Assembly: GCA_024679065.1 (NCBI GenBank) | Contig: JAGIQG010000001.1 | Coordinates: 162,750,001-162,814,000, forward strand | Source: Sphyrna mokarran | Lineage: Eukaryota | Length of the DNA stretch: 64,000 bases | Direction of reading: 5' to 3' | Part shown: in pieces, positions 2,505 to 59,799 of the stretch | How the letters are laid out: each line of letters starts with the position of its first letter | Numbering within the stretch: position 1 is the first letter of the stretch | Program-made: the position numbers and the translations under genes | The notes under the pieces: generated by a model | What the model saw: the letters and a program-made list of their open reading frames with translations, nothing else | What the model was told of the DNA's origin: nothing | The model's database searches: none

Positions 2505-2846
2505 GGGCAGCAGAGTAGCATAGCGGTTTGCACTGCTGCTTCACAGCTCAAGGGACCTGGGTTCAATTCCTGGTTTGGGTCACTGTGGAGTTTGTATATT
2601 CTCCTCATTTCTGCATGGGTTTCCTTCAGGTGCTCTGCTTTCCTCGCATAGTCCAAAGATGTGAAAGATAGGTTGATTGGCTATGCTAAAAATTGTCCCT
2701 TAGAGTCCTGAGATGCTTAGGTTAGAGGGATTAGCAGGTAAACGTGTAGGGATATAGGACTGGGACCTGGATGGGATTGTGGTCGATGCAGACTCAATGG
2801 GCCAAATGGCCTCTTTCTGCACTGTAGGGTTTCTATGATTCTATGA
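2505..2846 (+). mobile_element. tRNA-derived V-SINE (HE1-like), full length
   Basis: tRNA-like head with A box and B box (ggttcaattcc), V-domain (tgtggagtttg..ttctcc..gggtttcc..ggtgctc), CR1-type tail gggccaaatggcct...ttctatgattctatga. Confidence 0.85.
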
Positions 2847-5209: not shown

Positions 5210-8150
5210 AAGAAATAAGAGGAGAAGGCCAATCAACCCTTTACAATTGCTCTGCCACTAAAAGATAATCATGGTTGATCTATCACAATTATTTTCCTGC
5301 ACTCTCTCCATTTCCCACAATTTCTTTCATTCTCAAATTTCTATTGATCTGTCTTTAACGTATTCAATAATACAGCTTTCTGAAGCAAAAAATTCCAAAG
5401 ACCCACAATCCTTTGAGTGAAAACTTCTCATTAGTTTGAAAACACCAACTGTAACCTGTAAGAACCTGCAAGGATCAGTGCTTATGCCTCAGTTACTTAC
5501 CATATGTATCAAATGGCTGAGATTACCACCTTTTATTAATCAAACTTCAGTCCATGGTAATATCATAATTGTTTATTCTAAGACTATGACCCCACCAACC
5601 CTGCATCCCAGTTCTAGACTCCACATTTACGGTAAATTTCCTCCTGGCATCCACTGACAAATTAAAAGTTCTATATGTTTCAATTAGATCATCCCTAATT
5701 CTTCTAAATTATAGGAAATATAGATCCAGTCAAACACTACCTCCTCGTCAGAACTCCTTTCATCCCAGAATCAGTTAATGAACTCTGGTTGTACTTTGTC
5801 AAAGGTGAGTTATCCTTCCTTAGACAAGAAGGGTAAAATTGTGCACCCGTACTTCAGAAGTAATCTCATTATGGCCCTATATATAAGATATATATATATA
5901 TCTTATACTCCAATTCCTTTGTAATAAAGGCGAACATCTAATTGCTTTTCTAACTGGAAACGTATGTTTTCACTTTATCTGATTCATGCACTAAAATGCC
6001 ACTGTCCCGCTAAATACTAGGAATCTTCTTCCCTTTTTTTTTTAAATTTCCCCATGTTCTATTCCTTTAGTCACATACTTGCCCACTCACTGAACCTGAC
6101 TAAATTTCTTCGCATCTTCCTCAGGGTTTAGTTTTCCACCTGCATATAGTTAGCAAATTTAGAAATATTACATTCTGTCTACTCATTGAAGTCATCGATA
6201 CAGATTGTAAACAGGTGAGGTCTGAGCACTAATCCTTGTAGTATCCCATTATTACAGCTCGTCAACTTGAAAATGACCTATTTATTTTTACTCTGTGTCC
6301 TGGAACCAGTCCTCATTCCACACTAAGATCTAATAATACTTTGCAAATAATCCCAATCCCATGATTTTTAATTTTGTATAGCATGATAATATAAAGTGTG
6401 CCATCTTATCAAAAGCTTTTTCAAAATATAAATACATTATACAATTGCCCATATCTACTTTGCACTTATAACCTCAAAGAAGTCCCAAGAGAATTTTTTC
6501 TTGTCATGAATTCATATTGATACTGCCTAATAATATTATAATTCTCTAACTACTCCAATTGGAGTATTTAGAATTTGGCAAAGAGTGACTAAGAAATTGA
6601 AAAAGATAAAGTAGTTTACAACAGCAAACTAGCAAGAGACACAAAAATAAATAGTAAAAGTTTATATAGGTGCATAAAAAGAAATTAGCAAAAGTAAATA
6701 TGTTTCCCTTACAGCAGAGACAGAAGACATTGCAAATTACCTTATCTCTAATAATAGGTTCAAGCATTTTCCCAAACTATTAATGCCAGGCTAATTGATC
6801 CACAGATCCCTGTTTTTCTCTCTTTTTCCTTTCATGAATAATCACTACCTTCTGATGCATGGAGATTTTTCTAGAATCTAGGGAATTCTGGAAGGTCAAA
6901 ACAAATGCATACACAATTTCTGTAGCTTACTCTACATGCAGCTAATCTTAGCACGTAGAACATGGAGTTCAGGGGATTTGTTAACTTGAAATACTACTAA
7001 CTTCTGCAATATTAGTTATTTACTTTTAATATCCCCAAGTTCCTCATTTGCACTATAGTTTTGAATCCTATTTCTTTGTGAAAACAGATACAAAATATTA
7101 AACATTTCTTTATTCTTAGCATTACCTCATCCATCTATATACGTAAGGGACCCTCATTTACTCTTGGTACTCTCTTTTTACATTCCCACATCATATTTCA
7201 CAATCTGTTCTTATGTTTCTTGTTGGTTTGCTTTATATGCATTTTCTCTTTCAATTTCTTGGTCATTTTTTTCTAAATTCTGAAAAACTCCCAATCCTAA
7301 GGTGTATTACACTTATTTTTAAGCAACAACCTTCAGTCTTATATTTTCCTTAACTTCTCTTAGTTACAGAGGCATCACTTTTCCCTTTTTTTGGGAAATA
7401 TACCGTCATATCTTGTAATCTAACTTCCCATTCTATCTCAGCTAACCTGCCCTCATACCTATGTAGTTTGCTGTATTAGATTAAAGACCCTAGTTTTGGA
7501 CAGAATTAAAGCCATCTCAAACACAAAAAAAACTATCAGATTATGAATACTGTTCTCTGGAGGTTCCTATAAGATTAATAAATAATCTTTCATTGTTTTG
7601 GACCTAGTATAGCACAGTCTGTTCTCCAGTCGTTTTCTCAACATACTAATCTAGAAAATTACCTTATATACAATCCATGAACACATCCTCCAAACTTATT
7701 AACTGCAAACTTTGATTTTCCAAGTCCAAATAAAAATTCAAGTCCCTTATGGTTTACCATCATTCACCTCTAATTTTCTGACTAATGTTTTACCAAACAA
7801 TACAAATACTATGAGACAGATTATAAACTACTCCAACCAGTGGTCTCCATTCCTCGCTATTTAGTGAGTCTTTCCAAATTGAATCTGTACCTTGATTTTC
7901 CAAGCCAATGTCTTTTCACGCTGCTGCCTTTATCCCATCCTTCATTATCAAGATCACCTTCCTGGTCCCCTTTTCCATTATGCTCATCTCTTCTGAAAAT
8001 CAGGTATCCTGGAATCTTTAGTTCCCAATTTGGCCACTCTGTAGCCACATCTTCCTTGTGGCTATTAGATAAAACCAATTCATTTCTATCTCTGCAAATA
8101 AAACAGCAACGTTGCTGCAGATCTTTGCACGTTCAGATTAAATGTCTTTA
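5210..8150 (-). mobile_element. Old, highly decayed CR1 LINE (endonuclease to 3' tail)
   Basis: ORF 7857..8078 WELKIPGYLIFRRD (endonuclease); RT-like segments at 6200-6900; CR1-type tail near 5210-5280. Confidence 0.7.
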
Positions 8151-9231: not shown

Positions 9232-10938
9232 ACAAAGAACAAAGAACAAAATAGCACGGGAAACAAGCCATTCGGCCCAACGAGCCCGCACCGCCACCCC
9301 GATGTTCCCACCTCTACCCATAATCCCTGTCTATGTTTATAGATCTATGGATTAAAAACCAAATTTGAGACAATTTAGGGAGAATTTGTTTTGCCAATTA
9401 GCCTAAGAGCACGTCTTTGGGATGTGGGAGGAAACCAGAATACCTGGAGAAAACCCACGCAAGCACAGGGAGAATGTGCAAACTCCCACAGACACAGGTC
9501 CAAATCCATGCATCTGCACAGCACAGCGATAGTCACTGAGCTGTCGTGTTGCTCAAATGGTCCAGGTCAAGCGTACACTAACGATGTGAAGCACTAGGAT
9601 ACTCTCGGAAAAAAAATCCAAGAGCAGCCCTCTCAAGACCCATCACGTGTATGCTTCTTGTTAGGGAACAAGGTGGACCAAAGCATCTGTAGGATAAAAA
9701 CAAGTACATCAATATCATCATCTATTTACACACTTGCCAGGGACTCCCAAGGCTCATGATCCCTATTTTAAATCGGTTTTCTATACCCCTCCATTCCCAT
9801 TCTGCTCACGTGCCCATCTAAGTATTTTTTAAATAACTCCAGAGTGCCTGCCTCCACCACTTTACTTGGCAGCGCATTCCATACACCTACCATGTACATA
9901 TTACAAATAGAAGAGGTCCTAGTACCCAGTACCACCCTCTGTGTGAAAAAACTCCCTCTAGCATCCAAATTATACCTTACCCCCCTCACCCTAAGCCCTT
10001 GACCCCTCATGCTATTCGAGTCCATCCTAGGAAAAAGCTTAACCCTATTTAGTCTATCGATACCCCTCAGAATCTTGTACACCTCTATTAGATCTCCTCA
10101 AAGTCCACATCTTTCTAAGGAAAATAGTCCCAATTTGTCTAACCTCTCCTTGTAACTCAGACTTTCCATACCAGGCAGCATCCTGGTAAACCTCCTCTGC
10201 ACTCTCTCCAGAGTCTCCACGTCCTTCCGGTAGTAAGGCGACCAGAACTGGACGCAGTATTCCAAATGAGGTCTAACCAACATATTATACAATTGCAACA
10301 TTAAAGGCCAGCTCTTGTGTTCTATACCCCTTCCTATAAAGGCTAGCATATCATATGCTTTCTTCACAACCTTCTCCACTTGCTCTGCCACCTTCAGAGA
10401 CTTGTGCACCTGCACCCCCAGGTCCCTTTGCGTTTCTATACTCTTAATAGGTCTACCCTTTATCACATACCTCCCCCCTATATTCTCTTTCTCCCAAAAT
10501 GCATCACCTCACATTTATCAGAATTGAATTCCATCTGCCATCTATCTGCCCAAGCTACCAGCCTACGTCCTGCTGCATCGCCTGACAATGCTCTCACTAT
10601 CCGCAAGTCCAGCCATCTTTGTATCATCTGCAAACTTGCTGATCACTCCACTTACTCCCTCTTCCAAGTCGAGCCCTGCGGCACACCACTAGTGACCGAC
10701 CTCCAGCTAGAAAAACACCCTTCCACTATACTCTGACTCCTATTACTAAGCCAGTTATTCATCCATTTAACTATCTGTCCTTGTATCCCATGAGCCTTGA
10801 CCTTCTCAACTAACCTCCCATGAGGGACTTTGTCAAATGCCTTACTGAAATCCATATAGACGACATCAACGGCTCACCCTTCGTCAACCATTTCTGTCAC
10901 CTCCTCAAAAAATTCTACCAGATTTGTAAGGCACGACC
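9232..10938 (-). mobile_element. Young CR1-clade LINE, copy A (5'-truncated, disrupted RT + long 3' UTR)
   Basis: RT motifs DFSKAFDKVPH, GVPQGS, KFADD and LVRPHLEYCVQFWSP; (TTCTTTG)n tail; flanking GAATGA duplication at 9226-9231 and 10939-10944. Confidence 0.93.
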
Positions 10939-21912: not shown

Positions 21913-22608
21913 CTGCAAAAACAGAGTGAATTAATCTGTGCCAAAAACAAAGAACAAAACAGCACGGGAAACAGGCCCTTTGGCCCAACGAGCCTCTGCC
22001 GCCACTTTGATGTTCCCAGTTCTCCCCATGATCTCTGTCTATGTTTATAGACCTACGCATTAGAACCAAATTTGAGACAATTTAGGGAGAATTTGTTCTG
22101 CCAATTAGCCTAAGAGCACATCTTTGGGATGTGGAAGGAAACTGGAGCACCCGGAGAAAACCCATGCAAGCATAGGGAGAATGCGCAAGCTCCCTCAGAC
22201 ACAGGCCCAAATCCATGTATTTGCACTGCACAGCAATAGTCATTCAGCTGTCGTGTTGCCCATCAAATGGTCCAGGTCAAGCGTACACAAACGATGTGAA
22301 GCCCTAGGCTACTCTCGAAAAATATAAGAGCAGCCCTCTCACGACCCATCGCGTGTATGCCTCTTGTCAGACAACAAGTCGGACCAAAGCACCTGTAGGA
22401 TAAAACAATTACATCAATAGCATCAACAATTTACACACTTCCCAGGGAACTCCCAAGGCTTATGATCCTTATTTTAAATCAGTTTTCTATATCCCTTCAT
22501 TCCCATTCTGTTCATGTGCCCATCCAAGTATCTCTTAAATAACTCCAGAGTGCCTGCCTCCATCACTTTACTTGGCAGCGTGTTCCATACCCCCCCACTC
22601 TCTTTCAA

Positions 22609-24358
22609 CTAACCTCCCATAAGGGACTTTGTCAAATGCATTACTGAAATCCATATAGATGACATCAACAGCTCGCCCTTTGTCACCTCCTCAAAAAATT
22701 CTACCAGATTCGTAAGGCACGACCTCCCCTTAACAAAGCCATGCTGCATATCCCTAATCAGATCGCAACTCTCTAAGTGCCTATACATTCTATCTCTAAG
22801 AATTCCCTCCAACAGCTTCCCTACCACTGACGTCAAACTCACTGGCCTATAATTTCCAGGGTTATCCCTACCACCCTTTTTAAACAACGGTACAACATTA
22901 GCTATTCTCCAGTCCTCTGGGGCCTCACCTGTGTCCAAAGAAGAGACAAAGATTTGTGTCAGAGGCCCAGCAATTTCACCTCACACCTCCCTAAGCAGTC
23001 TGGATAAATGCCATCAGGCCCTGGAGATTTATCAGTTTTAATGCTACCTAGAAGCTCTGACACTTCCTCCCTCGGTACGGATATTTCTCTCAACTGATCT
23101 ACCGCTCCCTCAGAGACCGGTCAACAAGCCCCTCTCCTTCGTGAATACTGATGCAAAGTATTCATTCAGGATCTCCCCCATTCCCTTGGGCTCTAAGTGC
23201 AGTTCCCCTCCTCCGTTCTTAAGAAGTCCGATTTTTCCTCTAACCACCCTTTTATTCCTAACATAGAAGTAAAAAACCTTTGGATTTTCCTTAATCCTAT
23301 CTGCCAAAACCATTTCATGCCCCCTTTTTGTCCTAACTCTCCGTTTGAGCTCCCTCCTACTCTCTCTATATTCCTCCATCGCTCTCTCCATTCCCAGCTG
23401 CTTTGACCTAACATACGGCTCTCTTTTCTTCCTAACCAAGTCCTCAATATCCCTAGTAATCCACGGCTCTCGAATCCTACCTTTCCCATCCTTCCACTTA
23501 GCCGGCACATATCTTTCTTGCAACATTTTCAGTATTCCCTTGAAAGGATCCCACATGCCTAGCGTGGACTTACCCTCAAACAACCGTTCCCAATCAGTTT
23601 CCATAAGTTCCTGCCTAATCCGACTGTAGTTAGCCTTCCCCCCATTCAGTACCCTTCCCCTAGGGCAATAAGCATCCTTTTCCATTTGTATCCTAAGGTA
23701 GACAGAATTGTGGTCACTGTTCGCCACATATTCCCCTACTACAACCTCAACCACCTGACCTGGCTCATTACTCAGAACTAAATCCAATATTGCCCCCTCT
23801 CTAGTCGGACTAGCTACATACTGCTCCAATGAATTTACAAATTCCTCCCCATCCGAACCCCCAGCTCTAGGTACCTACCAATCCACCCAAGGGGATTAAA
23901 ATCTCCCACTACGACAACTCTGTTCTTTCTGCACCTATCCAAAACGTCTTTACGTGGGCTGTTGGGTGGCCTAGCATAGTAATTGCCCCCTTCCTATTCC
24001 TCAACTCCACCCACAGCGACGCAACTCATAACTCCTCTATATTGTCCTCCCTCTGCACTGCTGTGATGCTCTCCCTAACAAACAACGCCACTCCCCCACC
24101 TCTTCTGAACCCTCCTCTGTCACACCTGAAACACTTATACCCAGGAATATTCAGCTGCCACTGCTCCCCTTCCTTTAACCACATCTCTGTCACTGCAACC
24201 ACATCCAAGTTCCTTGCAAACATTAACGCCCTAAGTTCATCTGTTTTTCCTGTTATGCTCCTCACATTGAAACAGACACACTCCAGACCTCCAAGCACAC
24301 TCGGAACCTCCTTCTCCCTGGTGTATTTCCTCTCATCCAAGCTTACTCTATCTCCCAT
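22609..24358 (-). pseudogene. CR1 ORF2 remnant (APE endonuclease + N-terminal RT), frameshifted
   Basis: ORF-track pieces 24026..24358, 23110..23829 and 22609..22938. Confidence 0.9.
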
Positions 24359-28878: not shown

Positions 28879-29873
28879 AACAAAGAACAAAACATCACGG
28901 GAAACAGGTCATTCAGCCCAACAAGCCCACGCCGCCACTCTGATGTTCCCACCTCTACCCGCAATCCCTGTCCATGTTTATAGATCTATGGATTAAAAAC
29001 CAAATTTGAGACAATTTAGGGAGAATTTGTTCTGCCAATTGGCCTAAGAGCACATCTTTGGGATGCAGGAGGAAACCAGAGCACCCAGAGAAAACCCACG
29101 CAAGCACGGGGAGAATGCGCAAACTCCCACAGACACAGGCCCAAATCCATGTATCTGCACAGCACAGCGATAGTGACTGAGCTGTCGTGTTGCCCATCAA
29201 ATGGTCAAGGTCAAGCGTACACTAACGATGTGAAGTACTAGGATACTCTTGAAAAAAAAAAGTCCAAGAGCAGCCCTCTCACGCCCCATCGCGTGTATGC
29301 CCCTCGTTAGACAACAAGGTGGACCAAAGCACCTGTAGGATATAAACAAGTACATCAATATCATCATCTATTTACACACTTCCCAGGGACTCCCAAGGCT
29401 CATGATCCCCATTTTAAATCAGTTTTCTACACCCTTCCATTCCCATTCTGTTCATGTGCCCATCTAAGTATTTCTTAAATAACTCCAGAGTGCCTGCCTC
29501 CACCACTTTACTTGGCAACGCATTCCATACCCCCACCACCCTCTGTGTGAAAAAACTCCCTCTAGCATCCAAATTATACTTTACCTCCCTCACCCTAAGC
29601 CCGTGACCCCTCGTGCTATTCGAGTCCATCCTAGGAAAAAGCTTAACCCTGTTTACTCTATCTATTCCCCTCATAATCTTGTACACCTCTATTAGATCTC
29701 CTCTAAGTCTACGTCTTTCTAAGGAAAACAGTCCCAATTTGCCTAACCTCTCCTCGTAACTCGGACCTTCCATACCAGGCAGCATCCTGGTAAACATCCT
29801 CTGCAGTCTCTCCAGAGTCTCCACGTCCTTCCAGTAGTAGGGCGACCAGAACTGGACGCAGTATTCCAAATGA
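28879..29873 (-). mobile_element. Young CR1-clade LINE, copy C (5'-truncated)
   Basis: Open RT C-terminus (29414..29869; EYCVQFWSP...LRGDLIEVYKIM...FFTQRVVGVWNALP) followed by the shared 3' UTR. Confidence 0.93.
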
Positions 29874-29995
29874 TCTTAAAATATTTTACAATCAAGAATT
29901 ATCTTTTGATGTGCAGCCACTGTTTTAAAAAAACTGCTTATGCATAGGAGAGGTCCCACAAATAGGATACCATTGAGTATCTTGTCTAACTTTAC

Positions 29996-31321: not shown

Positions 31322-31632
31322 TAGAATTCCTACTGTGCAGAAGGAGGCTATTCAGCCCATCGAGTCTGTACCAACAATAATTTCACCCATGCCCTACTCT
31401 TATAACCCCTCATACTGATCCTGCTAATCCATCCAACACTAAAGATCAATTTAGCATGGTCAATCCACTTAACATACACATCTTTGGACTGTGGGAGGAA
31501 ACCAGAGCATCTGGAGGAAACCCATACAGACATGGGAAGAACATGCAAACTCCACACAGACAGTTACTTGAAGCTAGAATTGAACTCATGCTCCTGGCAC
31601 TGAGAGACAGCAATGCTAACCACTGCGCCATT
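31322..31632 (-). mobile_element. tRNA-derived V-SINE (HE1-like)
   Basis: Reverse complement of the same head, V-domain and tail as 2505-2846. Confidence 0.85.
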
Positions 31633-33327: not shown

Positions 33328-33632
33328 ATAGAACCACAGAAGGATGCCATTCAGCCCATTGAGTCTGCACCAACCACAATCCCACCAGGCCCTATTCCTG
33401 TAAACCTTCATAGTAACCCTTATCCCCCTGATACTAAGGTTAATTTAGTGTGGCCAATGAACCTAACAGACATATCTCTGGACTGATGGGGAAAATTGAA
33501 GCACCCAGAGGAAACACACGCAGACACGGGAAGAATGTACAGAGTACACATGAACAGTAACCTGAGGTTGGAATTGAAACCGGGTCCCTGGTGCTCGGAG
33601 GCAGCAGTGTTAACCACTGTGCCATCGTGCTG
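33328..33632 (-). mobile_element. tRNA-derived V-SINE (HE1-like)
   Basis: Head gcacgatggcacagtggttaacactgctgcc, B box ggtttcaattcc, V-domain, CR1-type tail. Confidence 0.85.
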
Positions 33633-57363: not shown

Positions 57364-59314
57364 AATATCCATACCGAGGGAGGAAGTGTTAGAGCTTCTA
57401 GGTAGCATTAAAACTGATAAATCTCCAGGGCCTGATGGCATTTATCCCAGGTTGCTTAGGGAGGTGTGAGGCGAAATTGCTGGACCTCTGACGCAAATCT
57501 TTGTCTCTTCTTTGGACACAGTTGAGGTCCCAGAGGACTGGAGAATAGCTAATGTTGTACCATTGCTTAAAAAAGGTAGTAGGGATAACCCTGGAAATTA
57601 TAGGCTGGTGAGTTTGACGTCAGTGGTAGGGAAGCTGTTGGAGGGGATTCTTAGAGATAGGACGTAAAGGCACTTAGAGAGTTGTGATCTGATTAGGGAT
57701 ATGCAGCATAGCTTTGTCAAGGGGAGGTCGTGCCTTACAAATGTGGTAGAATTTTTTGAGGAGGTGACGGAAATGGTCGACAAGGGGTGAGCCGTTGATG
57801 TCGTCTATATGGATTTCAGTAAGGCATTTGACAAAGTCCCTCATGGGAGGTTAGTTGAGAAGGTTAAGGCTCATGGGATACAAGGACAGGTAGAGGGTGT
57901 TTTTCTAGCTGGAGGTCGGCAGATGATACAAAGATGGCTGGACTTGCGGATAGTGAGGAGCGTTGTCAGGCAATGCAGCAGGACATAGGCTGGTAGCTTG
58001 GGCAGATAGATGGCAGATGGAATTCAATCCTGATAAATGTGAGGTGATGCATCTCGGGAGAAAGAGAATGTAGGGGAGAGGTATGTGATAAAGGGTAGAC
58101 CTATTTAGAGTATAGAAATACAGAGGGACCTGGGGGTGCAGGTGCACAAGTCTCTGAAGGTGGCAGAGCAAGTGGAGAAGGCTGTGAAGAAAGCAAATGG
58201 TATGCTAGTCGTTATAGGAAGGGGTATAGAATACATCAGCTGGCCTTTAATGTTGCAATTGTATAAAACGTTCTTTAGACGTCATTTGGAATACTGCGTC
58301 CAGTTCTGGTCGCCTTACTACCGGAAGGACTTGGAGACTCTGGAGAGAGTGCAGAAGAGGTTTACCAGGATGCTGCCTGGTATGGAAAGTCTGAGTTACG
58401 AGGAGAGGTTAGGCAAATTGGAACTGTTTTCCTTAGAAAGAAGTGGACTTAGAGGAGATCTAATAGAGGTGTACAAGATTGATGGGTATAGATAGAGTAA
58501 ACAGGGTTAAGCTTTTTCCTAGGATGGACTCAAATAGCATGAGGGGTCATGGGCTTAGGGTGTGGGGGGGTTAAGGTATAATTTGGATGCTAGAGGGAGT
58601 TTTTTCACAGAGGGTAATACTGGGTACTAGGACCTCTTCTATTTGTAATATATATATATATATATGGTAGGTGTATGGAATGCGCTGCCAAGTAAAGTGG
58701 TGGAGGTAGGCACTCTGGAGTTATTGAAGAAATATTTAGATGGGCATATGAACAGAATGGGAATGGAGGGGTATAGAAAACTGATTTAAAATAGGGATCA
58801 TGAGCCTTGGGAGTCCCTGGGAAGAGTGTAAATAGGTGATGATATTGATGTACTTGTTTTTATCCTACAGGTGCTTTGGTCCACCTTGTTGCCTAACAAG
58901 GGGCATACACGTGATGGGTTGTGAGGGGGCTGCTCTTGGATTTTTTTTTTTGAGAATATCCTAGTGCTTCACGTCGTTAGTGTATGCTTGACCTGGACCA
59001 TTTGGGCAACACGACAGCTCAGTGACTATCACTGTGCTGTGCAGATACATGGATTTGGGCCTGTCTGTGGGAGTTTGCACATTCTCCCTGTGTTTGCGTG
59101 GCTTTTCTCCAGGTGCTCCGGTTTCCTCCCACATCCAAAGACGTGCTCTTAGGCTAATTGGCAAAACAAGTTCTCCCTAAATTGTCTCAAATTTGGTTTT
59201 TAATCCATAGATCTATAAACATACAGGGATTGTGGGTAGGGGTGGGAACATCGAGGTGGCGGTGCGGGCTCATTGGGCCGAATGGCCTGTTTCCCGTGCT
59301 GTTTTGTTCTTTGT
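57364..59314 (+). mobile_element. Young CR1-clade LINE, copy E (5'-truncated, internal deletions)
   Basis: Reverse complement of the copy A/B sequence; ORF 58136..58495; ORF2 stop at 58787-58789; tail gtgctgttttgttctttgt. Confidence 0.93.
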
Positions 59315-59799
59315 ACTTTTAATATGAAGAAAAGGAGAGAAGTTCCAATGTTTTAACGCCTTTCTTGACCACATGTTAAAAATCTGAAAGTGTGCCAAAA
59401 ATGCACCATAATTCCCTTAACATTGGAAAATTAGGACTCTGGCAAAGTCAAAATAATTGACAGAGTAAAAGTTTTGCGAAGAAAGTACTTTCACTCTGGA
59501 TGGTTAGAGTCTGGAATGATCTTCCTGAGAGAGTGATTCGGAAATTTTAATTGAGATATTTAAAACAATTGGATTGCTACCTGGAAATAAATGTGCAAGG
59601 TTACAAATGTGAAAGGGAAAGATGACTTAGTCGAATGATCTTGCAGAGAGGCAGTGCAGAGTCAATGGGCTGAATGGCCTCTTTCTGCACTAAGATTCTG
59701 TGACTCAGAACCTTGCAATGTAAAACATTAACTTGCTTTTTCACTTCAACACTTGAAAAAAATCGCCGTGATTAGGGAGAATCAACATTTTTATGCAAG

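Follow-up and report, generated by a model that had tools for sequence, protein, structure and literature searches.

The 3′ UTR of a CR1 LINE family of Sphyrna mokarran holds a V-SINE head and V domain, likely captured once and likely kept by selection

One clade of CR1 LINEs in the Sphyrna mokarran genome carries within its 3′ UTR the head and V domain of a V-SINE, minus the B box. This piece was likely captured once and has likely been kept by selection as a help to the LINE RNA; we place the probability of this reading at roughly 70%. From 5′ to 3′, the element consists of an ORF1 esterase, an ORF2 with endonuclease and reverse transcriptase (EN-RT), a spacer, a hairpin, the head remnant, the V core, a linker and a CR1 tail. 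Coordinates refer to the window, the whole stretch of 64,000 nucleotides that was analysed (contig JAGIQG010000001.1, positions 162,750,001 to 162,814,000), and are collected in Table 1.

Table 1. Positions in the window of the LINE copies, the parts of the 3′ UTR of copy E and the free V-SINEs
Feature	Position	Strand	Remarks
Copy A, subfamily F1	9234..10938	-	within-window comparison
Copy B, F1 variant, internal ORF2 deletion	21947..23085	-	within-window comparison
Copy C, subfamily F1	28879..29892	-	within-window comparison
Copy D, F1 variant	44390..45223	-	within-window comparison
Copy E, 5′-truncated CR1 ORF2 (RT and C-terminus)	57364..58789	+	frameshifts, rearrangements; stop TAA 58787-58789
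UTR spacer, mostly F1-specific	58790..58871	+	~60 nt shorter in F2/F3; ends in pyrimidine tract and CAG
~132-nt segment, predicted long stem-loop, kept in F1, F2 and F3	58872..59003	+	fold z-scores
Decayed tRNA-derived SINE head	59004..59061	+	from SINE base 1 onward; A-box region changed, B box lost
V domain core	59062..59145	+	77/86 to free SINE majority
SINE post-core block	59146..59182	+	SINE homology ends there; shuffle P <=0.007, six of six comparisons
Fast-changing linker	59183..59257	+	barely alignable between subfamilies; SINE homology undetected
CR1-type terminal stem-loop and TTCTTTG repeat	59258..59320	+	tail comparisons
Free V-SINE with tRNA head and B box	2520..2835	+	within-window comparison
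Free V-SINE with tRNA head and B box	31322..31631	-	within-window comparison
Free V-SINE with tRNA head and B box	33337..33625	-	within-window comparison

Results

The carrier is a canonical vertebrate-type CR1 LINE with an esterase ORF1 and an EN-RT ORF2, ~4.5 kb long as measured on copies fetched around endonuclease matches. Endonuclease (PF03372/PF14529) and reverse transcriptase (PF00078) domains were found in ORF2 of copy L261, RVT_1 (PF00078) was present in the sister copy L120, and a GDSL-esterase in ORF1 (PF13472) scored above the cut-off in copy L252. The family was assigned to CR1 since this layout agrees with the canonical vertebrate CR1, which the relevant passages of PMC13343379 describe as having an esterase ORF1 and an ORF2 with APE and RT, and as plentiful in elasmobranchs. 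Other CR1 traits are present as well, namely a 3′ stem-loop, a short tandem repeat and frequent 5′ truncation. Subfamily F3 (L098:8270-8780 and L142-L170) has the same stem-loop, followed by poly(A) in place of the TTCTTTG repeat; a poly-A tail is called unique to Zenon among CR1-group elements in a passage of PMC13343379. No unbroken ORF2 was seen in the 20 copies fetched around matches to the ORF2 5′ end, the longest pieces measuring 749-813 aa.

As the earlier note had it, five copies in the window share a ~525-nt 3′ UTR (58790-59314), at 86-93% identity. The note's view that LINE and SINE are copied as one chimeric unit was also supported. Breakpoints that differ from copy to copy, which would have spoken against it, did not appear: the junctions are identical in 5/5 window copies, and 5′ truncation varies genome-wide. 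Copy E itself lacks ~180 nt of ORF2 near 57893-57919 (site noted at 57894-57918), and a 40-nt piece that other copies place there is found at 58620-58659, beside an (AT)n run. Just downstream, at 59400-59700 on the same strand, lies the 3′ end of an older, unrelated short-UTR CR1. Elsewhere in the window are an ~80-nt tandem repeat and a pair of ~150-nt inverted repeats (51553-51811 and 6561-7291).

Querying the genome with the UTR turned up 9,843 first-look candidates; the 40 that were scored, the window copy itself aside, matched over the full length at 92-93% identity. Among loci chosen by similarity, 29/29 non-self loci adjoin an ORF2 end and the 29 locus ends read, of 30, all carry a TTCTTTG-type tail. 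Exact matches to a 22-nt mid-UTR pattern numbered 33,888 genome-wide (control, 0), so that the family has at least 33,888 copies. The first 30 of these head-remnant matches in contig order all lay inside the LINE family, with varied 5′ truncation; they comprised 20 F1, 9 F2 and 1 F3 copies, and the V core was reached in 29, the remaining one being cut within the UTR on its 5′ side. Four copies with the core were present in 400 kb sampled without selection. By word shares alone, a search of sequencing runs returned 19 runs from 12 studies, with more than half of the words in one run and shares of 0.41 and 0.32 in two other organisms; we do not take these shares as evidence of range or expression.

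We identify the core of the embedded piece as a V domain because it matches the majority sequence of 30 free SINE loci at 77/86 positions and, by eye, the frog V-SINE Racla consensus (PMC5804259 supplement) at 66/77. Within the window, its matches to free SINEs, which the earlier note had already pointed out, reach E values down to 7e-18. The same note had described the insert as lacking a tRNA head, which was not borne out. Immediately 5′ to the core there is an alignment with SINE bases 1-51, beginning with the SINE's first base, at 33/51 identity (shuffle P 0.001-0.002 for F1 and 0.001-0.02 for F2; not significant for F3, 0.08-0.44). What the LINE-borne head does lack is the B box, which was removed by a deletion of 18-19 nt. 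Using a consensus motif with one mismatch allowed, we found a B box upstream of the core in 0/161 LINE-borne matches (128 distinct sequences), compared with 91/109 free SINEs. The embedded piece is therefore SINE-derived but is not a working SINE. Nor does it occur as an independent short unit, 30/30 ordered matches being inside the LINE. ARAGORN reported 0 tRNAs in the window. Searches for a parent SINE combining the LINE-type head with a B box, and for a pre-insertion LINE with a short UTR, each gave 0 matches to one exact pattern, variants being outside its reach. On the 3′ side, SINE homology stops at ~59182, where two free V-SINE families also part from each other.

The second of these families, S2 (e.g. 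L037:673, L071, L052), has head and V domain in common with the CR1-tailed family and differs in its tail, which has an AATAAA-rich run at the end. Its partner LINE may be L2-like. One of the free SINEs in the window (2520-2835) has an insertion of ~15 nt past the post-core block relative to the other two, and probably belongs to another subfamily. Free SINE copies have a median identity of 83% to their majority (best, 92.5%) and LINE copies one of 91-99%, and by this measure the free SINE copies are the older.

Downstream of the insert, the UTR departs from the SINE. The 30-80 nt of linker beyond the end of homology match neither free SINE family (P 0.33-0.95). At the terminal stem-loop, 37/53 positions agree with the free SINE tail, and 43/53 and 42/49 with the best short-UTR CR1 tails; the margin is modest, and several CR1 tails score below the SINE tail against the LINE stem-loop. 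The alignment of the UTR with the SINE tail that the note had reported was not confirmed: homology ends ~37 nt past the core, and the stem-loop is generic and CR1-like. A CR1-type tail follows the SINE fragment, and the SINE is therefore probably not the LINE's own terminus, contrary to one of the note's proposals.

Upstream of the insert, 199/207 matches to the ~132-nt hairpin segment continue into the head remnant, and the remainder are cut, decayed or weak. Neither free-standing copies nor a source of this segment were found in 1.32 Mb, and Rfam gave a single chance match (E 3.1) on 58700-59340. The conserved UTR block opens with a pyrimidine tract followed by CAG/G (58857-58871) that resembles a splice acceptor and is kept in F1-F3. 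A short-UTR CR1 (L086:8302) has a comparable motif, so it may be ancestral; in copies that land within introns it could exonize. A spliced non-autonomous derivative joined at this motif is unsupported, as recurring foreign upstream sequence was absent; the pattern used, with 293 matches, discriminates poorly, many of the matches carrying a family variant (30 loci were read and 100 listed ones checked by eye).

The family comprises three subfamilies, F1, F2 and F3, all with the same insert and the same lesions; F2 and F3 have at least 40 copies each, at 95-98% identity to the query. Further linker variants (L202, L206, L226, L225 and window copies B and D), among them a longer F2 linker, an F3 copy without poly(A) and an F1 variant, suggest more than three subfamilies. 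Trees of LINE copies were built from copies of this genome only, and their roots are not fixed. At the ORF2 end (22 of 59 family copies and 27 short-UTR CR1 copies), F1, F2 and F3 form one clade (98/98) apart from the short-UTR CR1s. The tree of LINE-borne versus free V domains that the earlier note had called for (24/128 LINE and 48/109 free sequences, 126 columns) likewise places all LINE-borne V domains in one clade (100/100), with the root again not fixed; it is star-like and does not say whether that clade is nested among the SINEs or basal to them. Both trees give the branching (F1,(F2,F3)). LINE-borne V domains also have near-fixed diagnostic bases that few free copies show; position 34 of the V domain, for example, is T in 161/161 LINE matches and in 3/101 free SINEs (S1+S2).

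The long UTR is limited to this one CR1 clade, the 27 other CR1 copies in the tree being short-UTR. In ~0.86 Mb, non-family CR1 ORF2 ends with a recognisable tail nearby have it within ~70 nt. The V domain occurs in vertebrates, molluscs and cnidarians, according to passages of PMC4824008 and PMC5804259, and is therefore far older than the long-UTR clade. Together with the common insert, the single clades on ORF2 and V with the same branching, and the head remnant, this wide range of V-SINEs points to a single capture by the LINE and not to donation. Altogether, the earlier note stands with regard to the shared UTR, the V-like core, co-amplification and capture, and is not supported with regard to a head-less insert, a SINE tail as LINE end and a LINE donor.

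The insert has changed more slowly than its surroundings since the subfamilies split: head and V domain differ by 5-12%, ORF2 silent sites by 16-39% and the adjacent UTR hairpin by 20-34%. For F1-F2, we counted 7/145 differences in head and V against 62/170 at fourfold sites of ORF2 (P 1e-12), alongside 72/497 amino acid differences in ORF2 and 1/54 in the tail. The corresponding values are 18/145 and 63/160 for F1-F3 (P 7e-8), and 11/146 and 31/194 for F2-F3 (P 0.02). The UTR segment just upstream also changes more than head and V in all three pairs (P 4e-5 to 6e-4). Constraint looks weaker on the F3 branch, where the head alone gives P 0.3 (F2-F3), and all rate tests rest on three subfamily majorities. 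The head's 35% divergence from the SINE accrued before the subfamily split. Among polarised derived sites, 3 join F2 with F3 and 0 join either other pair. This agreement with the ORF2 tree and the patchwork of rates leave a recent UTR swap unsupported by the sequence comparisons. Its slower change relative to both ORF2 silent sites and the adjacent hairpin suggests that the head and V piece is likely under selection.

Both conserved parts of the UTR are predicted to fold. The 132-nt segment forms a long predicted stem-loop in F1, F2 and F3 (z -3.9, -5.5 and -3.3). Fewer of its pairs are broken than random placement of the observed substitutions would break (P 0.0006-0.03), so that pairing is kept at 20-34% divergence; two-sided changes are not in excess there. 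The minimum free energy (MFE) folds of head and V are alike in F1-F3 (40-42 of 43 pairs common) and, computed independently, have 31-33 of 43-44 pairs in common with the free SINE S2; the MFE fold of the free SINE S1 has 12-13 pairs only in common with the LINE fold. Covariation between LINE and SINE is weak, with 3-4 two-sided changes (P 0.03-0.14, uncorrected). Matched changes in head and V are G-C to A-U at 5:112 and U-A to C-G at 8:108. These predictions are suggestive of a common head and V RNA fold, not proof of it.

Discussion

We propose that the UTR of an active master copy received a V-SINE in sense orientation, through insertion or template switch. The insert would then have lost its B box and its own 3′ part, and so would give rise to no Pol III RNA and be transcribed within the LINE RNA only. 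On master copies, the SINE piece has likely been held under purifying selection. The 5′ end of the head is predicted to pair with bases midway along the V domain, giving a multi-hairpin fold that resembles the free SINE, with the B-box hairpin shortened at its tip, and the putative folded element could raise RNA stability, RNP assembly or the rate of retrotransposition. The insert is not required for CR1 success, since other, short-UTR CR1 lineages are also abundant and young. That the head and V domain of its own parasite now serve an autonomous LINE as a domesticated, structured RNA element working outside Pol III transcription is a reading we put forward tentatively, at somewhat under even odds.

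Where the V domain came from and how it spread leave little room for other explanations. Had SINEs inserted independently beside LINE copies, as their density in the genome might allow, the junctions and lesions would not be held in common across 5/5 window copies and 30/30 ordered matches; this is refuted, and we give it next to no credence. Donation of the V domain by the LINE lineage to the SINEs has a parallel in SINE bodies that arose from LINE parts in the RTE and Vingi clades, as set out in passages of PMC5786205, and the V tree is unrooted, yet donation is very improbable. The earlier note had offered it beside capture, but the LINE holds a remnant of a Pol III tRNA head that only a SINE could supply, all other sampled CR1 lineages have short UTRs, free SINE copies appear older than LINE copies, and V-SINEs are traced back to cnidarians in PMC4824008. 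Capture by the LINE, the note's other option, is supported by the head remnant, the clade-limited long UTR and the age of the V domain.

More weight attaches to what has kept the insert. After a single capture it may simply have hitch-hiked, neutral and little diverged through chance, low local mutability or conversion among master copies. This would suit the small number of subfamily majorities, the weaker signal on the F3 branch and the success of short-UTR CR1s that do without the insert. It is nonetheless unlikely, given a conserved island with faster sequence on both flanks in three of three pairwise comparisons, LINE-specific diagnostic bases that exclude conversion by free SINEs, and a V tree that agrees with the ORF2 tree. 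Alternatively, selection may act on DNA or on a primary-sequence protein-binding site, such as an enhancer, an antisense promoter or a recombination or template-switch site, and not on an RNA fold. Near base-for-base conservation of the V core and a shortage of two-sided covariation are in its favour, and domains of this kind have been suggested to act in enhancers and in recombination (PMC4824008, section 13; a passage of PMC5804259). Against it, some head changes have counterparts in the V core (5:112 and 8:108), and the adjacent hairpin retains its pairing although its sequence has diverged. We regard such a site as a possibility worth keeping in mind, with the odds clearly against it, and favour selection for help to the LINE RNA.

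Why the central domains of SINEs are conserved is an open question, on which the chimera bears; passages of PMC5499810 and PMC11481361 treat their role as open. The V domain has been conserved for hundreds of millions of years without a known function. In an autonomous-type LINE it still changes slowly with no promoter of its own, which suggests that the benefit is to the element's own RNA, and not to the host or to Pol III transcription. This places the V domain in a cis context, where its effect would be measurable with a standard retrotransposition reporter. If domestication is the true explanation, the V domain would be a portable cis-acting booster of retrotransposon RNA, and in this genome it would now be spread mainly by a LINE and less by SINEs. 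Unless repeat annotation models the chimera, it will take tens of thousands of LINE ends for SINEs.

Fragments of SINEs within BovB or L1 consensus sequences would be precedents for such chimeras; a literature search did not confirm them. The literature surveyed, at the level of listings and the openings of abstracts, describes no CR1 whose 3′ UTR contains a V-SINE. Among known systems, the HE1 SINE and HER1 LINE are alike in that a V-SINE with a tRNA head and a CR1-type LINE have related 3′ tails in the same kind of genome. The HER1 LINE reportedly shares only its tail with HE1, whereas here the LINE itself holds a head remnant and the V domain, a distinction drawn from descriptions of the two families. 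HE1 and the CR1-type HER1 are listed as a pair of sharks and rays in a passage of PMC3747384. A statement from 2016 in PMC5804259 has it that such domains were not found in LINEs. From canonical CR1s the family differs in its UTR of 380-530 nt, SINE remnant included; the UTR passage in PMC13343379 concerns 5′ UTRs. MER6/MER6A is similar in that a V-SINE was taken up by a mobile element of another class, which then spread the V domain as its passenger; as described in passages of PMC6887750, MER6 is a long inactive, non-autonomous DNA transposon with SINE body and tail but no head, whereas the carrier here is an autonomous-type retrotransposon that has the domain in its RNA, with slowed change between subfamilies. 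The Ceph domain and the SINE bodies derived from bipartite LINEs likewise exemplify the exchange of modules between LINEs and SINEs, but the passages of PMC5786205 that describe them, in RTE and Vingi, have it run from LINE 5′ UTR to SINE, opposite to the capture here. Ingi-3_AC, with a Ceph-like piece in its 5′ UTR, is the sole suggestion of SINE-to-LINE transfer in those passages; their comparison of Repbase LINEs and SINEs, from which pairs matching at their 3′ termini were filtered out, reports no CR1 with a V domain. The exchange of modules between LINEs and SINEs is thus itself known, and the present family represents its rare direction, from SINE to LINE.
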